DNA of 64,000 nucleotides, taken from IMG/VR virus record IMGVR_UViG_3300036791_001907, positions 97,482-161,481 of that record. One strand, written 5' to 3'. Numbering within the stretch: position 1 is the stretch's first letter; the number at the start of each line of letters is the position of its first letter. This stretch comes from a virus. Position numbers and translations under genes: made by a program. Of this stretch, positions 17,765 through 34,451 are shown piece by piece. Below the pieces are notes generated by a model that was not told the DNA's origin, did not search any database, and saw only the letters and a program-made list of their open reading frames with translations.

Positions 17765-20700
17765 ATGTCTGAACCTACCGCGGAACAACCCACGGCCTTC
17801 AAGACGATCACCCAGCTGCCACGCGAGCAGCGCTGGGAGCATTACGGCAAGAAGTTCCTGGTGCCGCTCGATCATCCGAACATCCCGCCCGCCGGTCCCG
17901 ACTTCGCGCGCACCGTGCACGATCTGATCGGCGCCAAGGTTGCGCCCAAGATGCCGCGCGATGATCTGGGCACGATCGGCGTGGACTATCTCTACCGCCA
18001 TGCGCTCTACCGGCGCAAGTGGGAGCTTCAGGTCAACTTCAAGGGCCAGCTCCGGCAGGCGGAATTCCTGCCGGGCGGGCTCTGGACGTTGCCGCCCGTC
18101 TTCGACATCAAGAACAGCTCGGTGGACACCCACGATCATGAGTGGGCCGGTTACGCGCCGGTTGGTGGTCCGCGGAAGCTGGCCGCAGTCATGGTCGTCG
18201 GCAAGCATCCGGGCGCCGAGGAGCTGTTTTACAAGCAGAACTTCATCGGGCCGGCGTCGGCGGATCTGCACCGGGCACTCCGCGAGATCGGGGTGCCGCC
18301 GGAGGTGCGGCACAACTGGTACGTGACCAATGCGGTCAAGCACAACCGGCTTGATCCCACATCGGGGAACATGCAGCAGGCGTGGCTCAAGAACTGCGCG
18401 CCGCTGCTCTGGCAGGAGATCCTCCTGGTCCGGCCCCGGTTCATCGTCTGCCTCGGTACCGAGGCGATCAAGGCCGTGCTGGGCAAGGGCTTCACGGTCA
18501 CCAACATGACTGGCCGCGTGATCGAGAAGATGCTCAGAGTGCCGCCGGCCGCCGCCGGCACGCAGGCCGACTTCGAGAACCTGGACGACTATTTCGAGCA
18601 CAAGATCCTGATCATGGGTCTGCCCCACCCGGCCTACATCTTTCGGGTGCCGGAGGCTTACCCTGATCTGGTCTCGGGCCTCACCAAGTTCCTCGAGCTG
18701 GTCGGCGGCGATCGGCCGCGCGACGTCGAGGAGGACCGCAAGCATGCGGCCTACCATGCCCAGTTTCCCCTGGCCAAGGCGATCGACAACATCCTCGAGA
18801 AGGCCCACCACGAATGGAAGTTTGATATCGACGGCGATCTCCCGGTCGCCTGGGACGCCGAGTGGCATGGCCGGCAGCCTGCGGATGCCGGGGCCTACCT
18901 GCGCACCATCCAGTTCGCCGTCGGGGAGAAGTACGACGAGGCACCCAAGAAGGCGACCTCCGTGGTCCTGACCGAGAAGGGCGGAGGTACGGGCTGGTTC
19001 CACTCCCGCGAGGAGGTTGCCGGCGAGCTGCGCCGTCTGGTCGAGGGCCGCCATCGCAACGACAAGATGCCGCTGGTCAGGACCCGCCATGGCGGCCACT
19101 TCTTCAAGGCCGACATCCCCTGGATCGATATGTTCCTGGGGATCAACTTCCGCCCGCTCTGGACGACCCTGCGGCCGCGGCGGGAAAAGTCGGAGGAGGA
19201 GCCGGAAGGCGAACCAAAGGTCCAGCGGTTCGACGGCGTGGAATTTCGCAAGCAGCTCGCCGCCTACAAGGAGGAGGAGCGGAAGGCCACGGATGATGAC
19301 CGAGCGCCACAGTGGTCGGCACCGGATCCTGCGGACAGGTCCTTCATTCGGGGGCATGAGCCCTGGGAGCTGACCCGCTACATGGGCGGCTTCGACACCT
19401 GCTACATGGCACACGCGGTCTTCGAGGCCGCGGAGAGCTTCGGCCTGGAGTCGCTGGCGCTGCGCTGGACGACGTGCCCGCGCTGGAGCACCGACATCGA
19501 GCAGGCCAAGATCCGGATCGCCAAGGAAATGGGGATCAAGCTCCGTGATCTGATCGGCTACGGCGACATTCCCGATCACGAGATCCTGCCCTACGCCTGC
19601 TACGACGCCGACGCGACGCTTCGCCTCTTCTGGAAGTTCAACTTCGCGCGGGCGCCCCGTGAGGGGGAGGGGTTCCTCGATCACGATGTCCACCATCAGA
19701 ATTCCCGTGAGGCGTTCTGGCGGACGATGCTCGCCGGGCTGGCATTCCTGGAGATGGAGGAGACCGGCGTGGCGGTCGATGTCGACCGCGGCAAGGAGCT
19801 GATCAAGGTCTTCGAGCTGGTCAAGGAGCGCCTGACCACATCGCTTCGCGACGATCTGGGCTGGCCGGCGTTCAACCCCAACTCAGCGCCCCAGGTGCGG
19901 GCGTGGCTCTTCGGCGAGGAGTACAGCGGCGCGATCGACAAGAAGACCGGCAAGGGCCGGCCGCTCATGCCGCGGAAGGACATGTCCCTCGGCAAGGTGC
20001 CCATCAAGACCACGGGCAAGCCGCCCAAGGCGTGGGAGCAGGTCCAGTACAAGGACGCCAAGCTGTATACGCCGGCCGTGGACAAGGAGGTGCTGGGGAT
20101 CTACGCCTGGGAGGATCCCCGGATCAAGAAGTTGCGGGACATCCGGTATGTTCGCCAGGTGCTCCAGTCGGTGCTCCGTCCCCCCAAGGTCGGCGAGGCC
20201 GTTGTCCCTGATGGTGACGGCGGCATTGTCTACGATGAACTCGACGAGTTCGATGGCGGCTTCCTGAGTTATGTCAGCCCGCGCGACGGCCGGGTACGGA
20301 GCCGGTTCGCGCCCGTGGAGACCCGGCGCTGCTCGTCGGCCGGTCCCAACCTCCAGAACCTGGCCAAGCGCCGGGAGGATGACTACGGACGGATCCTCGG
20401 GCACTACGACGACGAGGGCAAGCTCAAGGGGGACTACCTGGACATCCTGGGCGGGCCGCTCTATCGCGACCCGATCCGCTCGATCGTGACGGCGGACCTC
20501 TGGGACGGCGTGCCCACGGTCCTGATGGAGTTCGACATCGTCTCGGCCGAGATCGCCGCCCTGGCCTGGGAGTCGGGCGATCCGCAGATGATCGCGGACG
20601 TCACCCGGGCCATGCTCGATGAGGATGATCCCAAGTTCCTGGATATCCACGGCGCCACCGCCGTGGAGGCGTTCAAGCTCAGCTGCGCGCCGACCAAGAA

Positions 20701-21415
20701 GGGCCTCAAGTCGATCGGCAAGCCGGGCCTGCGGGTGGCCGCCAAGAACGTGCGGTTCGGCGTGCCCTACGGCCGCAGCGCCGAGGCACTGGCGCGGCAG
20801 TGCCGCGAGGAGGGTGCGGACGTCTCGGTGCGGGACTGTCAGCGGCTGATCATCAACTATCACAAGCGCTACCCGCTGGCCAGCCATTTCCTGGACGCGT
20901 GCGAGGCGATCCCGGCTGCCGACAAACCGTTCATGGTCGGGGCATTCGGCGGGATGCGCCGGTTCCAGCGAGTCGACGACCGGTCGGTCCTGGCCGACCA
21001 GGGTCGCTCGGCCAAGAACTACCCCATTCAGAACCTGGTGGCCGACGCCATCCTCCTGGGCATGTACAACCTGCTCCAGGTCCGCGCCGAGATGGGGCTC
21101 GAGAACGCGTTTCAGATCGTGCTCCAGATCCACGACGCCATCATGCTGCGGGTCAAGGTCCCGTACATCGCGACCGTCCGCGACGAGGTCATTCCGGTGG
21201 CGCTGAAGGAGCGGGTGCCGATCATGCCACGAACCCTCAAGGGCACTCCGTTCTCTGAGGTGAAGAAGGAAGAGCCGGAGCGCGGCTATCTCCATCTGGA
21301 CAAACCCTACCGGTTCAAGGTGGACTGTTCAGTGTTCCTGAACTGGGGACAGGCGATCGATCCCGTGCACGGTCGGTCGCTGGGGATCCCCGAACAGTAT
21401 CTCGGCAGCAAGTGA
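17765..21415 (+). CDS. polA: family A DNA polymerase with N-terminal family-4 uracil-DNA glycosylase-like domain and 3'-5' exonuclease
   Basis: UDG: VGKHPGAEE, FIGPAS, YVTNAVK, IVCLG, HPAY; exo: WDAEW, YACYDADAT; pol: CSSAGPNLQN, FDIVSAEI, RVAAKNVRFGVPYG, NYPIQ, QIHDAI. Confidence 0.93.
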   Translation: MSEPTAEQPTAFKTITQLPREQRWEHYGKKFLVPLDHPNIPPAGPDFARTVHDLIGAKVAPKMPRDDLGTIGVDYLYRHALYRRKWELQVNFKGQLRQAEFLPGGLWTLPPVFDIKNSSVDTHDHEWAGYAPVGGPRKLAAVMVVGKHPGAEELFYKQNFIGPASADLHRALREIGVPPEVRHNWYVTNAVKHNRLDPTSGNMQQAWLKNCAPLLWQEILLVRPRFIVCLGTEAIKAVLGKGFTVTNMTGRVIEKMLRVPPAAAGTQADFENLDDYFEHKILIMGLPHPAYIFRVPEAYPDLVSGLTKFLELVGGDRPRDVEEDRKHAAYHAQFPLAKAIDNILEKAHHEWKFDIDGDLPVAWDAEWHGRQPADAGAYLRTIQFAVGEKYDEAPKKATSVVLTEKGGGTGWFHSREEVAGELRRLVEGRHRNDKMPLVRTRHGGHFFKADIPWIDMFLGINFRPLWTTLRPRREKSEEEPEGEPKVQRFDGVEFRKQLAAYKEEERKATDDDRAPQWSAPDPADRSFIRGHEPWELTRYMGGFDTCYMAHAVFEAAESFGLESLALRWTTCPRWSTDIEQAKIRIAKEMGIKLRDLIGYGDIPDHEILPYACYDADATLRLFWKFNFARAPREGEGFLDHDVHHQNSREAFWRTMLAGLAFLEMEETGVAVDVDRGKELIKVFELVKERLTTSLRDDLGWPAFNPNSAPQVRAWLFGEEYSGAIDKKTGKGRPLMPRKDMSLGKVPIKTTGKPPKAWEQVQYKDAKLYTPAVDKEVLGIYAWEDPRIKKLRDIRYVRQVLQSVLRPPKVGEAVVPDGDGGIVYDELDEFDGGFLSYVSPRDGRVRSRFAPVETRRCSSAGPNLQNLAKRREDDYGRILGHYDDEGKLKGDYLDILGGPLYRDPIRSIVTADLWDGVPTVLMEFDIVSAEIAALAWESGDPQMIADVTRAMLDEDDPKFLDIHGATAVEAFKLSCAPTKKGLKSIGKPGLRVAAKNVRFGVPYGRSAEALARQCREEGADVSVRDCQRLIINYHKRYPLASHFLDACEAIPAADKPFMVGAFGGMRRFQRVDDRSVLADQGRSAKNYPIQNLVADAILLGMYNLLQVRAEMGLENAFQIVLQIHDAIMLRVKVPYIATVRDEVIPVALKERVPIMPRTLKGTPFSEVKKEEPERGYLHLDKPYRFKVDCSVFLNWGQAIDPVHGRSLGIPEQYLGSK

Positions 21416-21430
21416 CGACAGGACGGAGCC

Positions 21431-22510
21431 GTGGCGAAGAAGGGCCTGATCATCGTGCCCAAGCCAGGCGATCTGCTGGCGGCCTTGGCGGGCAAACCCA
21501 CGCGCGCCGAGGTCGCCGACTATTACTCCGGTCCTGTCATGTCGGAGGCCGAGTTCAAGAACGAGATGCTGGCCTCGTGGCCCGCTGAGCCAGCCGTCCC
21601 GCCGAAGCCAATGGAGTCTTCCGTCCAGAAAGCCATGGACGCAGTCAATGACTTCACCCGGCTCAAGATGCGAGAGGACGGGTTCTACAAGAAGATCATG
21701 CCGCCCCTGACGGTCAGCAAGAATGAACTGGGCCCACAGGTCGGCGATCAGGTAACGATAGGAGTGGATCTGGCTTCAGGGCACCCGGGCGGTCATGCCA
21801 TGACCGTCATGGACGTGTCGGATAATACAGTGCTCTTGCAGAATGGCTGGAGCGTATCCGTTCCGTCCGAGGGTCTCAAGGAGACTCCAGCGGGCGCCGA
21901 GAACCCCATCCTGTTCTCCGATCCCAAGTTCATCGGCAAGTCGTTCGCTGTCGATGATACGACCGCCTACGTCAAGAAGGAGTCGCATCTCCTTGAGTTC
22001 TTCGCTTATGAGACCGTGGGCGCGGCAATTGGCGATGCCGGCGCCATCGCGGAGGGCGAATGGGACGAGGACGACGACGACGACGACGACGAGGAGACCA
22101 GTGTGGATATTGCCTTCTGGTACTACCGGTCAACGGTCCTGATCTACTCCGTGCGGCGGGTGAGTGATAACTTCTTCTACGACTTCGCCACCAAGCGGTT
22201 CTCGCTGATGCCGGTCAGTCCCCGCGCCGGCATGCCCGTGGCCGAGCCCGTCCGACCGGGTTATCTCTACAGCACCCGCCTGTCGGGCAAGCTCGATGAC
22301 GGCGAGTACATCGTCACCTATCGCGACACCCAGGCCGGTGACGTGGTCATCGGCATCATGGCCCTGTTCATGGAGAATGGCGCGCAGCAGCAGGCGCCGG
22401 TCGCAGGGCTGGAGAACACGCCCGTCGAGGAAGGCTTGCCCGTGCCGGAAGGCATGTTCCGCCGGGCGGGACAGCGGGTGCGGCCGGTCGATACCGGCGC
22501 ATCGGAGTAG
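21431..22510 (+). CDS. mosaic protein with segments resembling N- and C-termini of a large-phage major capsid protein
   Basis: AVNDFTRLKMREDGFYKKIMPP and FSDPKFIGKSF..DDTTAYVKKE..LEFFAYETVGAAIG recalled from HK97-fold capsids; unverified. Confidence 0.5.
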   Translation: MAKKGLIIVPKPGDLLAALAGKPTRAEVADYYSGPVMSEAEFKNEMLASWPAEPAVPPKPMESSVQKAMDAVNDFTRLKMREDGFYKKIMPPLTVSKNELGPQVGDQVTIGVDLASGHPGGHAMTVMDVSDNTVLLQNGWSVSVPSEGLKETPAGAENPILFSDPKFIGKSFAVDDTTAYVKKESHLLEFFAYETVGAAIGDAGAIAEGEWDEDDDDDDDEETSVDIAFWYYRSTVLIYSVRRVSDNFFYDFATKRFSLMPVSPRAGMPVAEPVRPGYLYSTRLSGKLDDGEYIVTYRDTQAGDVVIGIMALFMENGAQQQAPVAGLENTPVEEGLPVPEGMFRRAGQRVRPVDTGASE

Positions 22511-22647
22511 TCCAACAGATCCCGTTACAGCGGGCCACGGATGGTGCTTGCCGGAGCCCGGCGAGCCTGCTAGGATGCGCATGCTCGACTTGATCGGGCA
22601 GCTAAAACTGTGATCTGTGAATGGGAATGTGCGACAGGAGAAGTGAC

Positions 22648-24402
22648 ATGACTCGCGCCCAACAGGGCGATGAGGCGCCCGAGCGTTCGTACGTCTCGTC
22701 CATGTTCGACGACGACAGCCGGTACAGCGGCAACCTGTTCGTCGATACCGACCTCGTGACGCCGATGAAGTCCCTCTGGCAGGTGCCAGGGACGAGGCTC
22801 AAGCAATTCGACTCGGTCCTGCGGATCTTGCCCGGCAAGCGCAATGACGGTCGCTGGTCGGCGTTCCGCACCAACCCCGGCAAGGGGCAATTCGGCCGCT
22901 GGATCTACTCGGCCTGGGCGGCCCGTTCGATCGGCGATCCCGCGGTGACGTTCTTCCTCTGCTCCGATGCCGACGTGCAGGATCACAACTACGATCCCCG
23001 CCAGCATCCGGTCTACATCCTCTACAACGCCATTTACTACGCGGTGGAAGAGGTCAACAAGCACGTCAAACCGCACTGGGCGCCGATGGTCACCTCGAAA
23101 CAGCGCAAGGTGATCAAGAAGCCGGGACCGATGTTCCTGGTGCAGTGCCTGGTGTACGGCCGCGGCGACAAGATCTACGACCCGCCGATGGGCACGGAAG
23201 AGGGGGAGAAGGTCGTCTGCTTCGATCTGGCCTCGGACGGCGGCAAGACGTTGCGGGCGCTCCTGGATCAGCGCAAGAGCCGCGACGAGCTGCCCGAGTC
23301 GGATGAGGCCGTGAACTTCGCCGACTACTACAAGTACGGCGACATCACCGCCTTCGACGGCGGCAAGTTCGTGCAGCTGTTCCCGGCCGGTCAGAACCCC
23401 AACCGCGACGGTCCTGGTCCGGCGGCGCAGGGGCCACGGCGGTCGCTTTCCAAGGCTGCGGTGGCCGAGAGCCGCACCCGCGCCCAGCAGGCGATCGACA
23501 GCGATCGTGACAAGATCGGCTACGAGGTCGCCATCCTCGATGAGTACCAGGGCTGGGAACCCAGCATCGCACCGGATCTCGCCGAGGCACTCGCGGCCAA
23601 GATCTACCCGTGGCCCGAGCTCATCAAGGTGCCGGATCACAAGATGGCGGCCAGCTACCTCTGGAGCCGGATGCGGTTCGGCGGCGAGCTGAAGCTCGAT
23701 GTCCTGCTCTACGCCTGGCGGGATCATCCTGACTGGCTGCCCCCCAAGGACTCCGACGTCTGGTCCGAATGGGTCAACCGGCGGCAGATCGCCCCGCGCG
23801 GCTACGATCCCGACGCGGGCGAGGAGGACGAGGATGATCAGCCGGCGGCAGCGCCGCAGGAAGATGCTGATCGCCGTCCCCGCCGCCGCGCCGGTGATGC
23901 CGCCGAGCGCGCTGATGATCTACCGCGGCGCCGCGCCGGTGATGCGGCCGAACGCACCGAACCGGCGCCCGCCGCACCGGCTCCGGATGATGAGGAGCCG
24001 CCGCCGCAGCGCGGGTCGCGGATGGTCGAGCGGCAGCAGACGACCAGCCCGCCGCCCACCAGCCCGCCGGCCACGACCGATCAGGAGCAGCCCCTGCGGG
24101 GGCGCGTGAGCCGGAGCCGGCCGAAGCCGGCCCAGGTGGAGGATACCACGGTTGCCGCGGACGCGATCGCCGGCGCGCGGGCCGCGCCGGATCCGGCGGC
24201 CAATGCCACGGCCTTCCGGCCCAGCAAGGCCGCGGCGGCAGCGGTTGCCGATAACGACGGCGAGGATCGACCCGCCACCAAAACGGCCGGCGGGTTCGCC
24301 GCGCCTCCGCCATCCGCAGCGGCGCCGCCGGTAGGGACCGGCAAGCGCGATCCCAAGGAGATCCTGGCGGCGGCGCGGGCCAGTTTCACCCGCACCAAGT
24401 AA
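22648..24402 (+). CDS. putative single-stranded DNA-binding protein (gp32-like) with long disordered C-terminus
   Basis: VLRILPG motif, aromatic-rich core, position just upstream of RecA; AGGAG RBS; function is inference. Confidence 0.5.
   Translation: MTRAQQGDEAPERSYVSSMFDDDSRYSGNLFVDTDLVTPMKSLWQVPGTRLKQFDSVLRILPGKRNDGRWSAFRTNPGKGQFGRWIYSAWAARSIGDPAVTFFLCSDADVQDHNYDPRQHPVYILYNAIYYAVEEVNKHVKPHWAPMVTSKQRKVIKKPGPMFLVQCLVYGRGDKIYDPPMGTEEGEKVVCFDLASDGGKTLRALLDQRKSRDELPESDEAVNFADYYKYGDITAFDGGKFVQLFPAGQNPNRDGPGPAAQGPRRSLSKAAVAESRTRAQQAIDSDRDKIGYEVAILDEYQGWEPSIAPDLAEALAAKIYPWPELIKVPDHKMAASYLWSRMRFGGELKLDVLLYAWRDHPDWLPPKDSDVWSEWVNRRQIAPRGYDPDAGEEDEDDQPAAAPQEDADRRPRRRAGDAAERADDLPRRRAGDAAERTEPAPAAPAPDDEEPPPQRGSRMVERQQTTSPPPTSPPATTDQEQPLRGRVSRSRPKPAQVEDTTVAADAIAGARAAPDPAANATAFRPSKAAAAAVADNDGEDRPATKTAGGFAAPPPSAAAPPVGTGKRDPKEILAAARASFTRTK
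23881..23955 (+). repeat. intragenic duplication encoding RRRAGDAAER twice
   Basis: cgccgcgccggtgatgc occurs twice 45 nt apart. Confidence 0.7.
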
Positions 24403-24418
24403 CAGGACGCGGCATCCG

Positions 24419-24444
24419 GCGGGCAGATCAGCTGATCTGCCCGC
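24419..24444. repeat. perfect 26-bp palindrome upstream of recA
   Basis: GCGGGCAGATCAG|CTGATCTGCCCGC. Confidence 0.85.
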
Positions 24445-24465
24445 GTCTGCGCAGGGGAGGTTCTC

Positions 24466-26019
24466 ATGACCAGGAAGGGGTTCCGGAAGGGACCCAGCAA
24501 GGGTGCCGCGGCGAGTAACGGTCAACCCACAGCGAAACCGGCGGCGAAACCTCGTACCAGGAAAGCAGCGGGCGGCAAGCCCAAGTTCAAGCCGCCGCCG
24601 AAGGTCAAGGCCGGTGACGCGGCCCGCGCCGGTTTGAAGATCTATCACGAGAGCGTCAAGGAGCTCGGCCACGAGGTGGCCTCGGACGCGGCCTGGACAG
24701 CACAGGTCGCGGTGCACCAGCGGGATAACGACCGCAAGGATCTGATCGTGGCGGGCGAGGCCCGCAAGCTGGTGGTGGGGATCCCGCTGCCCAGCCTGGC
24801 GCTCATGCACCTGTTCCAGTCGAACGTGCTGCCGGTGGGCCGGATCTACCAGATCACCGGCGAGGAGGGCTCCTCCAAGTCCAGCTTTCTTGCGGAGATG
24901 ATGCGCTGGGTGCTGATCTACTCCGGCTACGCGATGGTCTTCGAGGTCGAGGGCAAGGACATCGCCGAGCTGCGCGAGGCGATCTGGGAGTACAACTCCA
25001 CCTGGCTCAATGTCCGCAGCCTGATCGATCCCTGCGACTCGCTGAACCACTGGATGCGGAACCTGGGCAAGGAGATCGGCGAGGTCACTCGCTACAACGA
25101 GGGCTACGGCGGCTCACCCGGTATTGGCTGGCGCAACCCCTACATCTTCGGGGTCGACGCCTTCACGTCGGCGGGGGCCGACGAGACGATCGTCAAGATC
25201 GGCAAGGAGGGCGCTCCGGGCCGGAGCCACCCGATCGAGGCCAACCTGATCGCCCAGTACAGCCGCACCTGGACCGACAAGCTCCGCGGCACCTCGATCA
25301 TCGTTGCCGGCACCAACCACCTGAAGCCCAAGCGGGATGACCAGGGCAATGAGATCTCGCACTCGCCGGGCGGCAAGGCGCTGAAGTTCATGGAGTCGGT
25401 CGAGATCCAGATGCGGCGGCTGGGCAAGTACAAGGAGGCCGCCAAGTCCGGGGTCTGGCTCTGGATCGAGACGATGAAGAGTTCGATCGGCGAGCGGCTG
25501 AAGTCGGTGCGGGTCGCCATGGTCTGGGACTGGCGGTATCACGACGATGTCGCCGACTGGCGGCAGCATGCCTACTTCGACTGGCACACGGCGACCCTGG
25601 ATACGCTGCTCCAGTACGAGGCCGACAAGGACTCGAAGAAGACCTGGAACGCGATCAACGACATCGTCGATATCAACGCGGTGGCGCAGGGGCGCTACTG
25701 GTCTTACCGGCTGGGGATCCCTAAAGAAAAGCCGGTGCGGCGTCATGAATTCGGCCGGGCCCTGGACTACGATCGCGGGGTTTGCCGCGAGCTGTTCCCG
25801 ATCCTGGGTATCACCCGGCGGCCGGTGTTCCGGCCGGGCGAACGGCTCGTGGACACCATCGTGATGGCCTCGGCGAAGACCGATGCCGAGCTGCCCGACT
25901 ACTATGCCGAGTACGACGCGAACCTGAATGACTTCGCCGATGTCACGGAGAACCTGCATCGGGGCCGGACGGCGCGGCCCAAGGACGCGCCGGTCGCGGA
26001 GGAAGACGACGACGCATGA
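24466..26019 (+). CDS. recA: RecA/UvsX-like recombinase
   Basis: LPVGRIYQITGEEGSSKSS (Walker A variant), EVE, GVDAF, TNH, SPGGKALKF. Confidence 0.85.
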   Translation: MTRKGFRKGPSKGAAASNGQPTAKPAAKPRTRKAAGGKPKFKPPPKVKAGDAARAGLKIYHESVKELGHEVASDAAWTAQVAVHQRDNDRKDLIVAGEARKLVVGIPLPSLALMHLFQSNVLPVGRIYQITGEEGSSKSSFLAEMMRWVLIYSGYAMVFEVEGKDIAELREAIWEYNSTWLNVRSLIDPCDSLNHWMRNLGKEIGEVTRYNEGYGGSPGIGWRNPYIFGVDAFTSAGADETIVKIGKEGAPGRSHPIEANLIAQYSRTWTDKLRGTSIIVAGTNHLKPKRDDQGNEISHSPGGKALKFMESVEIQMRRLGKYKEAAKSGVWLWIETMKSSIGERLKSVRVAMVWDWRYHDDVADWRQHAYFDWHTATLDTLLQYEADKDSKKTWNAINDIVDINAVAQGRYWSYRLGIPKEKPVRRHEFGRALDYDRGVCRELFPILGITRRPVFRPGERLVDTIVMASAKTDAELPDYYAEYDANLNDFADVTENLHRGRTARPKDAPVAEEDDDA

Positions 26020-30478: not shown

Positions 30479-31012
30479 ATGAGCGTTTCGGCGTATTCTT
30501 GTTTGCTCCTGGGCGTCGAGGTCACCGTCATGGCGACTCCGACGCAAAAGGCGGTGACCCGCTATGATCCCGTGACCGGGGTGCCTGGTTCCGTCGAGCT
30601 GACCGTGCTGGAGCTCAGCATGGCGGCAGGCGGTCCATTCCTGGCCGTGTCGGCCGGCGACGCCAACTACCAGGCGGCCCAGGATAAGGATAAGTATCTC
30701 CGACTGGATGCCTGGGTCCGTGAGCAGACCAGCTTCCAGCTGGCTTCCTGGTTTGCGGCGCGGGGGTTCAAGAGCCAGGCCGGGGATATCACCAGGCGCG
30801 GTGATCTCGTCTACATGAGGAACCGCGGTCAGTATTTCGTTGGCCGGCTGCTCCTGGACACCGATAGCAGCGGCTACGGTGACGACAAGGCAACGGGCAC
30901 CATCGAGGTGCCGTCCGCGGAGGAGGTGGACAAGGTCCACGCAGCGCTGATCGACTGTTTCGGGCCGAAGGCCAAGCGGCCGCGGCTCGTGCTTTCCACG
31001 ACTTTGAGTTGA
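30479..31012 (+). CDS. hypothetical protein
   Basis: AGGAG RBS; ORF. Confidence 0.65.
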   Translation: MSVSAYSCLLLGVEVTVMATPTQKAVTRYDPVTGVPGSVELTVLELSMAAGGPFLAVSAGDANYQAAQDKDKYLRLDAWVREQTSFQLASWFAARGFKSQAGDITRRGDLVYMRNRGQYFVGRLLLDTDSSGYGDDKATGTIEVPSAEEVDKVHAALIDCFGPKAKRPRLVLSTTLS

Positions 31013-31023
31013 AGGAGGATCCC

Positions 31024-31437
31024 ATGACGACGTTCATTCTGGCTTTCGCGTTCGTGGCTCAGGCCGCACCGCTGCCGCCGCTTGTGTCGGCAGTCCAGGC
31101 GCAGGCACCGGGACGGTCAGATCCTGATCGGCCCAACCCGGACCGGCCGGTTGACCGGCCAGTTCAGCCCGCGCGTCCTGAGCCGCCGCCCAGTCCGCCG
31201 GAGCAGCCTTCGGGTCAGGTTCCTGCTGCATCGGCGCAGGCGCCTGTGTACGCATCGCCCCAGGCGGCTGGTGGCGCTGAGATGCCGCCGATCGCCATTC
31301 CCATTAACCCGGTGATTCGCTGGCTGGCGTATCCGGGTACGGCTCCGTGTGCGCCGCCGGTGACCTACGCGCGACGGGGCATTTTCCGGCACGGTTTCGG
31401 GCAGGGCTGGCGTCGCGCCAACCGGTGCTACCGATGA
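31024..31437 (+). CDS. Pro-rich putatively secreted protein
   Basis: Hydrophobic N-terminus MTTFILAFAFVAQA; strong RBS; basic RRGIFR tail. Confidence 0.6.
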   Translation: MTTFILAFAFVAQAAPLPPLVSAVQAQAPGRSDPDRPNPDRPVDRPVQPARPEPPPSPPEQPSGQVPAASAQAPVYASPQAAGGAEMPPIAIPINPVIRWLAYPGTAPCAPPVTYARRGIFRHGFGQGWRRANRCYR

Positions 31438-31688
31438 CCATCGGCGGCATCAAGATCAGCGAGCCCAAGTTCATCGTCCTGTCTCAACTTCTGGAGCACG
31501 GCGAGGTCGCCACCCGTAGTGTGCACGGCCGGACCGGCGGAGCACTGCTCGCAGAAGGATTGATCGAGGTGTTCGTACCCGAGGCCAGGACTCTTGCCAT
31601 GGCCGAACGGGGACGAGTCAAGTATTATCGCCTCACCGCGGCCGGCCGGGAGGCGATCCTCGGCGTCAAGCGACGCTACAAACGCTAA
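31434..31688 (+). CDS. small winged-helix (PadR-like wing) protein
   Basis: LLAEGLIE...RVKYYRLTAAGREA; ATGA overlap. Confidence 0.6.
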   Translation: MTIGGIKISEPKFIVLSQLLEHGEVATRSVHGRTGGALLAEGLIEVFVPEARTLAMAERGRVKYYRLTAAGREAILGVKRRYKR

Positions 31689-31704
31689 AAGGAGGACCCG
31701 CATC

Positions 31705-33231
31705 ATGCAGCAGTATCTCGATCTGCTCAACCGGATCGTTCATGAGGGTGAGGACGTCCAGTCGGGTGCCGTGATCCAGAGCGAGAACCGCAAGGCCGTC
31801 TGCCGGACGCTGGTGGGGCAGCAGCTCCGCTTCGACCTCCGCCAGGGGTTCCCGATCGTCACGACCAAGCCCGTGCCGTTCGATATCGTCGCCGACGAGG
31901 TGCTCTGGTTCCTGCGCGGCGAAACCAGTATCAACACGCTGGGCCGTACGATCAGCGACATCCCGGAAGGGTTCGGCGGCGTCATGACGCTGCCCGATGT
32001 CAAGATCCCGAAGAAGTTCGTTCGCCGCAAGATCTGGGACGCCTGGCGCGATCCGATCACCGGGGATCTTGGTCCCATCTACGGGTATCAATGGCGGCGG
32101 CAGGAGCATCTGCACCTTCGCGAGCCGGCCGTATTCCCACAGGTTGCGCGCGAGGAACTGGATGCGCTTGCTGCCGAGCATGGCAAGGCTACTGTCATGG
32201 ATGTCGGGTTTCGCGGGACGCCCGACCTGACCGATCCGCAGCACAAGATGCTCCAACTTCTCTGGATCGGCATGCTCCATCGTTGCTACGACCAGACCCG
32301 GCCCGAGTATGCTTTCTACGGGGCCAAAGGTGTCCACGTCGATCCTCGCTGGCTCGTCTTCTCTAACTTCCAGCGCGATGCCAAGTTGTTGCCGCGGTGG
32401 CGGCTCAAGGCGGCATTCCCTGACGAATACTGGCTCGACAAGGACTTCCTTGCCACGAACCGCTACGGGCCAGATACAGCGGTCTGGGCGAGCAAACCGG
32501 AACAGCATGCTAACAGCGGGAAGGGTACATTCTTCCGCGCGGCATCGCCGGATGGTCGGATCTACCGATCGATCAGCGCCGGGCGGTTTGCGAAGATCCA
32601 TGATCTCGACGCGTCCAGTGTCTACAAATGCCTGCGAGGCGAGGACTCCGCCTACAAGGGCTGGCGGTTCGAGCGGATCGATACCGGGGACGCTGTTCCT
32701 CGACTCGAACTCGTCGATCAGGTGGCGAACGTCCTCGCTGACCTGCGGGCTGTGGCGGGCGATCCCGGTGACAGGGCCCGTAGGCGGATCATCCTTACAG
32801 CATGGAACCCGCCCGATATCCCCGAGATGGGCCTGGCGCCCTGCCACACTTTGGCACAGTTCCTACCCACCAACGGCAAGCTGGACGTGGTCTGCCACTG
32901 GCGGTCGATCGACATGTTCCTGGGATGTCCGTTCAACATCATCCAGTATGCGCTGCTGGCGCACATCTTCGGCCAGCTGGCCGGCCTGGAGCCCAGGCAC
33001 CTGGTGGCGAACATCGCCGACTGCCACCTCTACGATAACCAGCTCGTTCAGGTTCGTGATCAACTTGAACGCGAACCGCGGCCGCTGCCCAGGCTGGTGA
33101 TCAATGATCGGTTCTTCCAGACCTGTCCGGACCTGAGCATCGAGCAGCTGCGGCAGGTTGATCCATTCTGGTTCACACTGGCCGGCTACACACCCCACGA
33201 GGGTAAACTGCGAGCAGAGGTTGCTGTCTGA
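31705..33231 (+). CDS. thyA: thymidylate synthase ThyA with in-frame HNH-like insertion
   Basis: MQQYLDLL, FDLRQGFPIVTTK, EVLWFLRG, GPIYGYQWR, RRIILTAWNP, LAPCH, RSIDMFLGCPFN, DCHLYDN. Confidence 0.95.
   Translation: MQQYLDLLNRIVHEGEDVQSGAVIQSENRKAVCRTLVGQQLRFDLRQGFPIVTTKPVPFDIVADEVLWFLRGETSINTLGRTISDIPEGFGGVMTLPDVKIPKKFVRRKIWDAWRDPITGDLGPIYGYQWRRQEHLHLREPAVFPQVAREELDALAAEHGKATVMDVGFRGTPDLTDPQHKMLQLLWIGMLHRCYDQTRPEYAFYGAKGVHVDPRWLVFSNFQRDAKLLPRWRLKAAFPDEYWLDKDFLATNRYGPDTAVWASKPEQHANSGKGTFFRAASPDGRIYRSISAGRFAKIHDLDASSVYKCLRGEDSAYKGWRFERIDTGDAVPRLELVDQVANVLADLRAVAGDPGDRARRRIILTAWNPPDIPEMGLAPCHTLAQFLPTNGKLDVVCHWRSIDMFLGCPFNIIQYALLAHIFGQLAGLEPRHLVANIADCHLYDNQLVQVRDQLEREPRPLPRLVINDRFFQTCPDLSIEQLRQVDPFWFTLAGYTPHEGKLRAEVAV
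32101..32712 (+). mobile_element. in-frame HNH-type endonuclease-like domain plus NUMOD1-like HTH inside thyA
   Basis: WIGMLHRCY..Y..YGAKGVHV..RW..FSNF, LDKD...NRYGP...W...Q.AN, then FAKIHDLDASSVYKCLRG...YKGWRF. Confidence 0.8.
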
Positions 33232-33290
33232 CGCTATTTCGAGCGCAGCCGGCGGGCGGTGTTGATCGCCGCCATGCCGGCGCGCGAGCT

Positions 33291-33866
33291 GTGACAAGGA
33301 TCCGTTCTGTGCACATCAGGAATTTGTCGATCGTGGTGGCGATGGACGATCAGGGCGTGATCGGCCACAATGGCGTGCTGCCATGGCCCGATATCAAGGA
33401 CGGCAGGTGGTTCCGCGAGAAGACGCTCCACCATTCACTCATCATGGGCCGCCGGACCTTCGAGGAAGTCATTACCCGGCACGGCCAGCCGCTTGACAAG
33501 CGGACCTCGATCGTGCTTTCCACGCGGCCCTGGGACGAGACCTGGCCGTCGCCCGGAGTGGACGAGCATGGGGTCCGCTGGGCCCGGGATCCTCTGGAGG
33601 CCCTGGACATGGCGTCCTGGGGCTGGAATGGCGGCGGTACATCCGACGCCGTGGTGATCGGCGGGGCTCAGGTCTACGAGATCTTTCTCCCCTTCGCTGC
33701 CACCATCTACCTGACGCTCGTCGCCGGCGATCATCAGGGGGACACGCTGTTTCCGGGCCGGGTTCCCGGACCACCGCAGTGGCGGGCCGAAACCGAGCCG
33801 CTTAACTTCGATGGTTTCTCATGTCATACACTATGCAGAACGGCGCCGGCGGGCCATCAGGTCTGA
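33291..33866 (+). CDS. folA: dihydrofolate reductase
   Basis: IVVAMD..GVIG..G.LPW, IMGRRTFE, VIGGAQVY, GDTLFP; follows thyA. Confidence 0.92.
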   Translation: MTRIRSVHIRNLSIVVAMDDQGVIGHNGVLPWPDIKDGRWFREKTLHHSLIMGRRTFEEVITRHGQPLDKRTSIVLSTRPWDETWPSPGVDEHGVRWARDPLEALDMASWGWNGGGTSDAVVIGGAQVYEIFLPFAATIYLTLVAGDHQGDTLFPGRVPGPPQWRAETEPLNFDGFSCHTLCRTAPAGHQV

Positions 33867-33875
33867 GAGGTCACC

Positions 33876-34451
33876 ATGGGCGATACGCAGCGTAACGCAC
33901 CAGTCGCGTTGACCCTGGATGGCTACCAGTCGCGGGCCATCGACACGGCCACCTACCCGGGCCGTGGCAACTACCAGCTGATCTACCCGGTGATCGCGCT
34001 GGCCGGTGAGACCGGCGAGCTGGCCGAGGCGGTTCTGGAGCTGGCCTGGCAGGGACCGAAGGAGGGCGTGGCCTTCAGGGCGCTGACCATGGTCGCGGCC
34101 TGCGGCGGGGTTATGGAACGGGTGAAGAAGGTCTACCGCAACGATCCCCCGGGGGAACTGACTCCGGAGCGGAAGCAGGAGTTGCTCAATGCCATCGCGC
34201 TGACGACCTGCGCGCTGGATGACCTTGCCGTGGCCATCGAGTTCGACGAGCGCGTCGAATTCCCGCCCGTGCCCGTCAACGCGACTGACCGGGAGCGCCT
34301 GGTCAAGGAGACCGGCGATATTCTCTGGTATGTGGCGGACTTCTGCACCGAGATCCGGGTCTCGCTGGGCTACGTGGGTGAGGTCAACTACATCAAGCTT
34401 GCTGACCGGGCGCGTCGCGACGCGATCCGGGGCAGCGGCGATAACCGTTGA
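33876..34451 (+). CDS. mazG: MazG-like nucleoside triphosphate pyrophosphohydrolase
   Basis: YQ..A..TATYP, LAGETGELAE, KETGDILWYVA, N..KL.DR..R..I.GSGDNR; contains two helical inserts. Confidence 0.85.
   Translation: MGDTQRNAPVALTLDGYQSRAIDTATYPGRGNYQLIYPVIALAGETGELAEAVLELAWQGPKEGVAFRALTMVAACGGVMERVKKVYRNDPPGELTPERKQELLNAIALTTCALDDLAVAIEFDERVEFPPVPVNATDRERLVKETGDILWYVADFCTEIRVSLGYVGEVNYIKLADRARRDAIRGSGDNR
33881..33897. promoter_or_regulatory. copy of 17-bp palindrome, at start of mazG
   Basis: CGATACGCAGCGTAACG, 1 mismatch to consensus. Confidence 0.55.

Follow-up and report, generated by a model that had tools for sequence, protein, structure and literature searches.

An in-frame homing-endonuclease-like module within a phage thymidylate synthase and its probable movement between thyA genes

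The window analysed here is a stretch of 64,000 nucleotides (positions 97,482 to 161,481 of the IMG/VR virus record IMGVR_UViG_3300036791_001907), and it contains a thymidylate synthase (TS) gene, thyA, whose reading frame accommodates 204 additional codons resembling a homing endonuclease. To our knowledge, homing endonuclease genes are thought to survive in essential genes only by residing in self-splicing introns or inteins, or otherwise between genes. The locus raises the question of how such a segment is maintained inside the coding sequence of an enzyme. The original prediction, made from the sequence without database searches, had offered two answers: a parasite that does not depend on splicing and is tolerated as a domain in a surface loop, or a domesticated DNA-binding ThyA. 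According to the analysis presented here, the segment is a homing-endonuclease element with an in-frame, non-splicing way of life. It is probably a homing-endonuclease-derived module that remains unspliced within an active ThyA and has been moved between thyA genes, most likely by homing-like conversion. The selfish gene seems to persist through tolerance inside the enzyme instead of removal by splicing.

The insert within ThyA

The in-frame insert is a real feature of the gene and not an artefact. The Pfam family Thymidylat_synt (PF00303) matched the 508-aa protein in two separate stretches (E 5.5e-67, 226 bits; cut-off 24.3). The gap between them, residues 133-336, corresponds to nucleotides 32101-32712 and 204 codons, which are exactly the coordinates that had been proposed for the segment between YGYQWRR and DQ. 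The ThyA sequence breaks off after IYGYQWRR and resumes with DQVANV, while the insert itself begins with QEHLHL and ends with PRLELV; the PR of the latter motif was kept among the ThyA inserts in the alignment and the conservation table. In the phmmer comparisons of the window ThyA with the TS of E. coli, L. casei and M. tuberculosis (E 1e-45 to 1e-49), residue 337 aligned with residue 109 of E. coli ThyA, meaning that the insert replaces the loop of approximately residues 100-109 of the E. coli enzyme, right after Y94, W98 and R99.

The catalytic set of the window ThyA was found to be complete and comprises R29, Y126 (E. coli Y94), R360-R361, C380-H381 (PCH), R400-S401-x-D403, PFN 409-411, H441 and Y443. 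These residues were invariant or nearly so in 23 aligned ThyAs, 17 with the insert and 6 without it, in agreement with the earlier observation that the PCH, RS.D and PFN motifs are intact. No PF00303 match other than the window thyA was present in the 161-kb virus record (rated 78% complete), nor was a ThyX or a second copy of the module detected there.

The selection acting on the gene was estimated from comparisons of the window with L004 and L007, two further genes that carry the insert. Within the insert, the proportion of nonsynonymous differences (pN) was 0.24-0.28 and that of synonymous differences (pS) 0.63-0.72. The ratios of nonsynonymous to synonymous substitution rates (dN/dS) were 0.14-0.21 for the insert, 0.24-0.29 for the ThyA backbone and 0.22 for the junction segment (residues 133-174, against L004), all of them rough values due to the saturation of dS (about 1 or more). 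Judged from these sequence comparisons, purifying selection clearly acts on the insert in the thyA frame.

The full-length AlphaFold2 (AF2) model had a mean predicted local distance difference test score (pLDDT) of 92.2 and a predicted template modelling score (pTM) of 0.89, and the insert modelled alone reached a pLDDT of 89.9. The junctions were modelled as two strands, residues 133-139 and 331-337, which are read as a two-strand stalk. The homodimer model of residues 1-500 passed with a score of 0.88, the best control being at 0.00. Among reference proteins, the mark for passing was attained by 20 of 30 that had been solved as pairs of one chain and by 1 of 23 that had been solved as single chains. 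The partner pLDDT was at least 89 and the runs agreed in at least 97% of contacts. The modelled interface combined the canonical ThyA sheet with residues 133-140 and 323-337 as well as a small number of module residues. As many ThyA dimers have been solved, the passing score may stem from likeness to them, and the model is taken to indicate only the absence of a clash.

Separately from the insert, residues 82-108 of ThyA (31948-32028) form a clade-specific extra loop of about 27 residues (..TISDIPEGFGG..KKFVRRK), which is present also in the insert-less ThyAs P0004 and P0005. This loop was modelled at low confidence (pLDDT 53-67, residues 81-100).

That the gene is dead, either as a pseudogene left open by chance or as an assembly chimera, is scarcely credible. 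Nothing specific was found in favour of such an explanation, apart from the fact that another copy of thyA or thyX could lie outside the 78%-complete record. Against it stand the full set of catalytic residues, the constrained backbone, the confident structure model and the recurrence of the same architecture, both across many independent assemblies and in the genome of a cultured phage.

Removal of the insert at the RNA or protein level was considered in parallel. The scan of positions 31000-34000 with cmscan against Rfam at E<=10 resulted in four chance-level matches to unrelated families and in no intron models, consistent with the predicted lack of group I elements. The reading frame was kept through both junctions in 86 divergent clusters of ThyA fusions. 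Group I and group II introns were rejected on the basis of these two results. No Hint, intein or LAGLIDADG family was matched by the 508-aa protein in Pfam at E<=1. The translation confirmed the terminal features described earlier: the insert starts with Gln, ends with Leu-Val and is followed by Asp, so that both a Cys, Ser or Thr nucleophile and a terminal His-Asn are lacking, and it contains no stop codon. Furthermore, the 204 residues are taken up by two confidently folded domains which leave no space for a Hint domain. In the absence of a Hint domain and terminal nucleophiles, the insert is not excised as an intein, and this candidate was rejected as well.

An intron of unrecognised kind or an atypical intein, yielding a mature ThyA without the insert, could be proposed nevertheless, since group I introns classically occur in thyA/td (T4 td; Bastillevirinae, PMC11878797) and atypical inteins without the standard terminal residues are known. 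We consider such removal very improbable in view of the negative intron and Hint results, the absence of a nucleophile at the +1 position, the frame preserved across the two junctions in over 80 divergent clusters, the junction dN/dS of about 0.2, and the junction strands modelled as a stalk with high confidence.

Identity of the inserted module

The insert matched the PHROG family phrog_2081, 'HNH endonuclease', with an E value of 6.7e-34 over profile positions 80-255 of 433; the first approximately 80 and the last approximately 170 positions of the profile are not represented. Weaker matches were obtained with phrogs 8790, 953, 374 and 3377. Besides Thymidylat_synt, the only Pfam family found at E<=1 in the 508-aa protein was I-HmuI_NUMOD-like (PF22083), with 18.3 bits for the insert alone and 16.7 bits for the whole protein (cut-off 27); at the same threshold, no AP2 DNA-binding domain was detected in the window ThyA.

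The C-terminal domain of the insert is homologous to the DNA-binding domain of I-HmuI. Insert residues 141-196 superposed on residues 119-174 of I-HmuI (1u3e_M) with a Z score of 8.6 and a root-mean-square deviation of 1.4 A over 56 residues, at 23% identity. The profile of the insert family matched 1U3E with E 1.3e-10, and the Foldseek comparison of the insert model with 1u3e gave E 4.8e-5 over 103 columns.

The preceding core domain contains a beta-beta-alpha unit, assigned by DSSP on the AF2 model to strands 242-245 and 260-263 and helix 264-269. Its conserved motifs are W..ML.RCY, YGAKG.V and W..F.NF, followed by LDKD....N.Y...T(C).W.....Q. The spacing of D245 and N/Q267, compared by eye, presumably resembles the D-H...N...N arrangement of I-HmuI. 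The structural match of the core with the HNH enzyme PacI was weak (Z 4.4), and no Pfam HNH family was matched within the insert. The core structure was searched within the 204-aa insert model, and the resulting VIA match list consisted mostly of the helix-turn-helix (HTH) domain. Proteins of the ESM Atlas contain this core fold paired with NUMOD1, NUMOD3 or I-HmuI-like modules, where it takes the catalytic slot of modular homing endonucleases. The insert had initially been described as an HNH-type domain with a NUMOD1-like HTH. The HTH proved to be of the I-HmuI NUMOD-like type (PF22083) and not Pfam NUMOD1.

The catalytic His of HNH enzymes, located at the end of strand 1, is replaced with Lys in the window insert (D245-K246). 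The LDKD motif had been read as a hint that the insert may be inactive. The Lys is no sign that the window copy has decayed: in 100 ThyA-embedded and 64 free-standing copies, the Lys was 94-97% conserved and the D-K-D triad 92-99%, embedded and free-standing copies being alike, and a family-wide residue does not reflect the decay of the window copy. The unusual residue of the window insert is instead C259A (32479-32481), at the position of a Cys that is 89-98% conserved in embedded or free-standing copies as part of a T-C-x-W motif. The other near-invariant Cys (RCY, residue 194) was retained. From the family relationships of the sequence, we infer that the module may possess nuclease activity. 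A 2025 survey located phrog_2081 genes within nine group I introns in the DNA polymerase genes of Bastillevirinae (PMC11878797).

The domain content of the family was found to be variable. A long form of the insert, with an extra beta-rich segment of about 60-80 residues before the core (..G..F.V...........V.F..TG..), was present in P0017, P0035, P0036, P0047, P0063 and P0121. The window insert is a short form without this segment, and the embedded modules thus vary in domain content. The ThyA fusion P0209 (739 aa) has an additional N-terminal extension of about 130 residues. In P0231 (362 aa), the same core is fused to an RNase_T-type exonuclease, and P0139 (557 aa) contains two tandem cores in one protein. 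Host enzymes other than ThyA were considered among the long non-ThyA matches and rejected, as P0139, P0179, P0183 and P0194 were all free-standing proteins with one or two cores.

Distribution and movement between thyA genes

The phmmer search with the insert returned 4605 cluster representatives at E<=0.001 (clusters at 50% identity). Among the best 150 of these, 86 were ThyAs with an internal module (approximately 410-740 aa) and 64 were free-standing proteins. Matches to the core domain were detected by tblastn in 391 phage records, where the annotation was mostly HNH or homing endonuclease. When the whole protein was used in a word-based search, ThyAs carrying the insert were recovered at 26-67% identity. 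The closest relatives of the window ThyA, sharing 64-78% identity over the aligned ThyA stretch, were all without the insert, and its absence was seen in the alignment for P0004, P0005, P0009, P0010 and P0019; several of these closest relatives are located on contigs of 211-231 kb with the same order of thyA, dihydrofolate reductase (DHFR) and MazG genes. The distribution among homologues, which the original prediction had named as informative, was therefore patchy. Cultured phages carry the module as well: Bacillus phage Kioshi gp41 (548 aa) is annotated simply as thymidylate synthase, and Enterococcus phage 163 has a ThyA with the module.

The history of the insert was compared with that of its host by means of a tree of 165 ThyA backbones, from which the insert columns had been removed. 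The insert state changed at least 13 times on this tree, and 7 of the changes were forced by starred branches. The backbone clade of the window included four insert-bearing genes among about 36 insert-less ones, and the approximately unbiased (AU) test rejected a single clade for these four backbones, and with it one origin on the backbone tree (difference in log likelihood 163, p 0.0003). In the insert tree, the window insert grouped with the inserts of P0002, P0003 and P0122 with a support of 97-98. The backbones of P0003 and P0017 belonged to one starred clade of six, whereas their inserts were of different lineages, that of P0017 being sister to the insert of P0149; the AU test rejected a clade of the P0003 and P0017 inserts, and thereby their vertical descent, with p 1e-8.

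The sequence around the insertion site was compared between the two states. The insert-less relatives have a native loop of 14-34 residues that starts with Trp and does not represent a remnant of the insert. The stretch IYGYQWRRQ was found in all four insert-bearing members of the window's clade and in 1 of about 30 insert-less ones, and the window has also the canonical GDLGP where its own clade has GDVPH. Such a shared, foreign-looking 5' flank looks like the co-conversion of donor flanks of different lengths, as far as can be read from the sequences. A second insertion site was located about 15 codons upstream, before GDLGPxYG, in P0049, P0200, P0218, P0228, P0232, P0245, P0258 and P0269, which represent one insert sub-lineage. 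Between the two sites lies the most conserved coding stretch, a plausible recognition sequence. The G+C content at third codon positions was slightly lower in the insert than in the backbone, 0.725 vs 0.809 in the window and 0.618 vs 0.764 in L007. Recent transfer between the window and L004 was not supported, with the insert dS of 1.37 not below the backbone dS of 0.99.

The distribution patterns that characterise homing genes were thus found here, namely patchiness among close relatives, conflict between element and host trees, and a pattern of flank co-conversion. Combined with the lack of an intron or intein and the constrained frame and junctions, they favour the first answer of the original prediction, the splicing-independent parasite in a surface loop.

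Several points weigh against the homing explanation. The window insert has lost a strongly conserved Cys (C259A). The HNH His is Lys throughout the family, and the core lacks a Pfam HNH match and resembles PacI only weakly. The dN/dS values are rough. Sampling of insert-less ThyAs was mostly centred on this phage, and the groups compared in the AU tests, although defined by the trait, were named once the trees had been seen. In addition, most ThyA inserts fell into three clades, in which 82-94% of the rows were ThyA-embedded, apart from the main free-standing clade; these clades also fit long residence with occasional recombination instead of active homing.

Alternatively, the module may have been domesticated as a DNA- or RNA-binding domain that is kept for the benefit of the phage, for example by tethering the synthesis of deoxythymidine monophosphate to replicating DNA or by regulating thyA expression. 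It would then no longer be a nuclease or mobile, and would have been spread by ordinary phage recombination. The family-wide Lys together with C259A in the window copy, the purifying selection on the insert being as strong as that on ThyA itself, and the mainly embedded clades agree with domestication, and the contacts of the junction strands and parts of the module with the partner subunit in the dimer model fit structural integration. However, the closest relatives manage without the insert, two insert lineages occupy near-identical backbones, and two insertion sites are used. Copies that stand free or are encoded in introns, with no ThyA to benefit, conserve the LDKD core to the same degree, and the shared foreign 5' flank resembles co-conversion. 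On balance, domestication is regarded as rather unlikely.

Under the homing explanation, the module would be translated as part of ThyA, with no removal at the RNA or protein level. The two-strand stalk would keep it off the ThyA core and beside the dimer, allowing the fused enzyme to continue to form the obligate ThyA dimer and to work. During co-infection, the module or a helper nuclease would nick or cut the conserved GDLGPxYGxQWR-coding stretch of a thyA allele that lacks the insert. With the occupied allele as template, repair would then copy the module together with a short 5' flank. The anatomy, the lack of splicing signatures, the constraint and the horizontal movement were shown by the analysis; lack of splicing in the living cell, continued TS activity and supply of the nuclease activity by the module itself are presumed. 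A more tentative possibility, for which we would use the term 'in-frame homing domain', is that the ThyA dimer serves as a scaffold on which two I-HmuI-type nickase modules are positioned close to the two-fold axis, and that the fusion itself might in this way break the empty alleles. ThyA would in that case be an enzyme and a mobility factor in one polypeptide.

Related systems and genomic surroundings

The closest published analogue occurs in the DNA methylase genes of actinophages, in the form of the ShiLan domain and the Pacc40 insertion (Gosselin et al. 2023, PMC9957025; Arsenault, Gosselin & Gogarten 2025, PMC11855218). The analogue and the ThyA module are both in-frame read-through insertions in a phage enzyme gene, with no detectable intron or intein, a patchy distribution and signs of homing, and the ShiLan domain is predicted to be looped out. 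In contrast to the ThyA module, which is folded and lies in the host frame, the ShiLan HNH is encoded in another frame and its in-frame peptide is a featureless loop; the host gene and the nuclease family also differ. The three long alternative-frame open reading frames (ORFs) over the ThyA insert had no Pfam match, and such long ORFs in other frames are usual for DNA of about 62% G+C. A hidden ORF of the ShiLan type was rejected accordingly: with an endonuclease-like module in the host frame and no Pfam match in the other frames, the ShiLan arrangement is not applicable.

Similarly to HNH inteins, the module places an endonuclease domain in frame within a host protein and is mobile between alleles, but it has no Hint splicing domain or terminal nucleophiles. 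The td/thyA group I introns of T4 and Bacillus mojavensis, with I-TevI and I-BmoI, share with it the host gene and the targeting of conserved coding sequence. These enzymes, however, are of the GIY-YIG family, and they are encoded in spliced introns at another thyA site. The td/thyA intron site lies in the region coding for downstream active-site residues.

The intron enzymes of the I-HmuI/phrog_2081 kind (SPO1-like phages, Bastillevirinae; PDB 1U3E; PMC11878797) have a homologous DNA-binding domain and the same layout of a catalytic-slot domain followed by an HTH. They are separate ORFs in self-splicing introns, whereas the ThyA module is fused and without an intron. I-HmuI itself has the canonical D-H with the general base and a NUMOD4-type N-terminus, and the core of the ThyA insert has D-K and is unseen by the Pfam HNH models. 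The IPA-HNH of ICP1-like phages (Barth, Dunham & Seed 2023, PMC10448857) is comparable in being a divergent HNH-like domain missed by Pfam, with a DNA-binding partner and located near or within essential genes. It is, however, defined by a C-terminal AP2 domain, and the ThyA insert with its I-HmuI-like DNA-binding domain is set apart by that definition. No ICP1 record was among the matches listed in the homologue searches, and no publication describing an endonuclease module in frame within ThyA was retrieved by full-text literature searches.

If the homing explanation is correct, tolerance in place of removal would represent a third solution for survival in an essential gene, used by a widespread family whose members are simply translated as an additional ThyA domain. 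The ShiLan precedent would be extended to a nuclease-like module which is itself part of the host protein. The insert also illustrates, in a natural setting, that a large inserted domain can be tolerated beside an active site, and it points to a possible route by which enzymes gain DNA-binding domains. Cultured phages such as Kioshi provide a testable system. For annotation, the module accounts for the 450-590-aa ThyA genes of many phage genomes.

The coordinates of the gene, the parts of the insert and the following genes are collected in Table 1.

Table 1. Features of the thyA locus in the window (positions of the window; P0001 is the window ThyA).
Feature	Positions	Strand	Details and basis
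Shine-Dalgarno AGGAGG	31690..31695	+	9 nt ahead of thyA ATG; read off sequence
thyA ORF with in-frame insert (P0001)	31705..33231	+	508 aa; ATG at 31705, stop 33229-33231
ThyA N-terminal part, aa 1-132	31705..32100	+	ends with GDLGPIYGYQWRR; Pfam/PHROG stretches, alignment
In-frame insert, aa 133-336, homing-endonuclease-like module	32101..32712	+	phrog_2081 E 6.7e-34
Insert N-junction strand, aa 133-139 (half of the two-strand stalk), and linker helix, aa 149-159	32101..32226	+	DSSP on AF2 model, pLDDT >88
Conserved core domain of insert, aa 175-275	32227..32529	+	W..ML.RCY, YGAKG.V, beta-beta-alpha, N252, W261, Q267; conservation table, DSSP
LDKD motif of insert core	32434-32445	+	conservation table
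I-HmuI-type DNA-binding (NUMOD-like HTH) domain of insert, aa 273-328	32521..32688	+	1u3e_M structure match, family profile, Foldseek
Insert C-junction strand (..PRLELV), pairs with N-junction strand	32689..32712	+	DSSP E331-337
ThyA C-terminal part, aa 337-508	32713..33231	+	R360 R361, C380 (32842-32844), RSxD, PFN, H441, Y443; Pfam, alignment, phmmer
Dihydrofolate reductase, gene after thyA	33291..33866	+	PF00186 E 2.2e-28
MazG-like pyrophosphohydrolase, weak match	33876..34451	+	PF03819 E 3.8e-4, under cut-off

The gene order thyA-DHFR-MazG is present also in relatives. Two departures from it were observed next to thyA. In L004, which is the closest relative with the insert, the place of the window's DHFR gene directly 3' of thyA is taken by an endonuclease VII/HNH-like gene of 199 aa (L004:5136-5735), possibly a helper nuclease or another selfish gene at the thyA locus. 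In the insert-less relative L002, an extra 349-aa gene of phrog_5931, function unknown, is located between thyA and DHFR (L002:7163-8212), and it is absent in the window, L008 and L009. This gene was considered as a free-standing copy of the insert beside thyA and rejected, being unrelated to the insert.

Upstream of thyA, positions 8543-26019 of the window encode an SbcC-like protein, two helicases, a DnaB-like helicase, a polymerase and a UvsX-like recombinase. This replication and recombination module fits a large phage of virulent type, though the IMG/VR label of the record is provirus. The 1216-aa DNA polymerase A encoded at 17765-21415 (+) has an N-terminal domain of the uracil-DNA-glycosylase superfamily (PF03167, residues 140-297), which precedes the 3'-5' exonuclease and polymerase domains.

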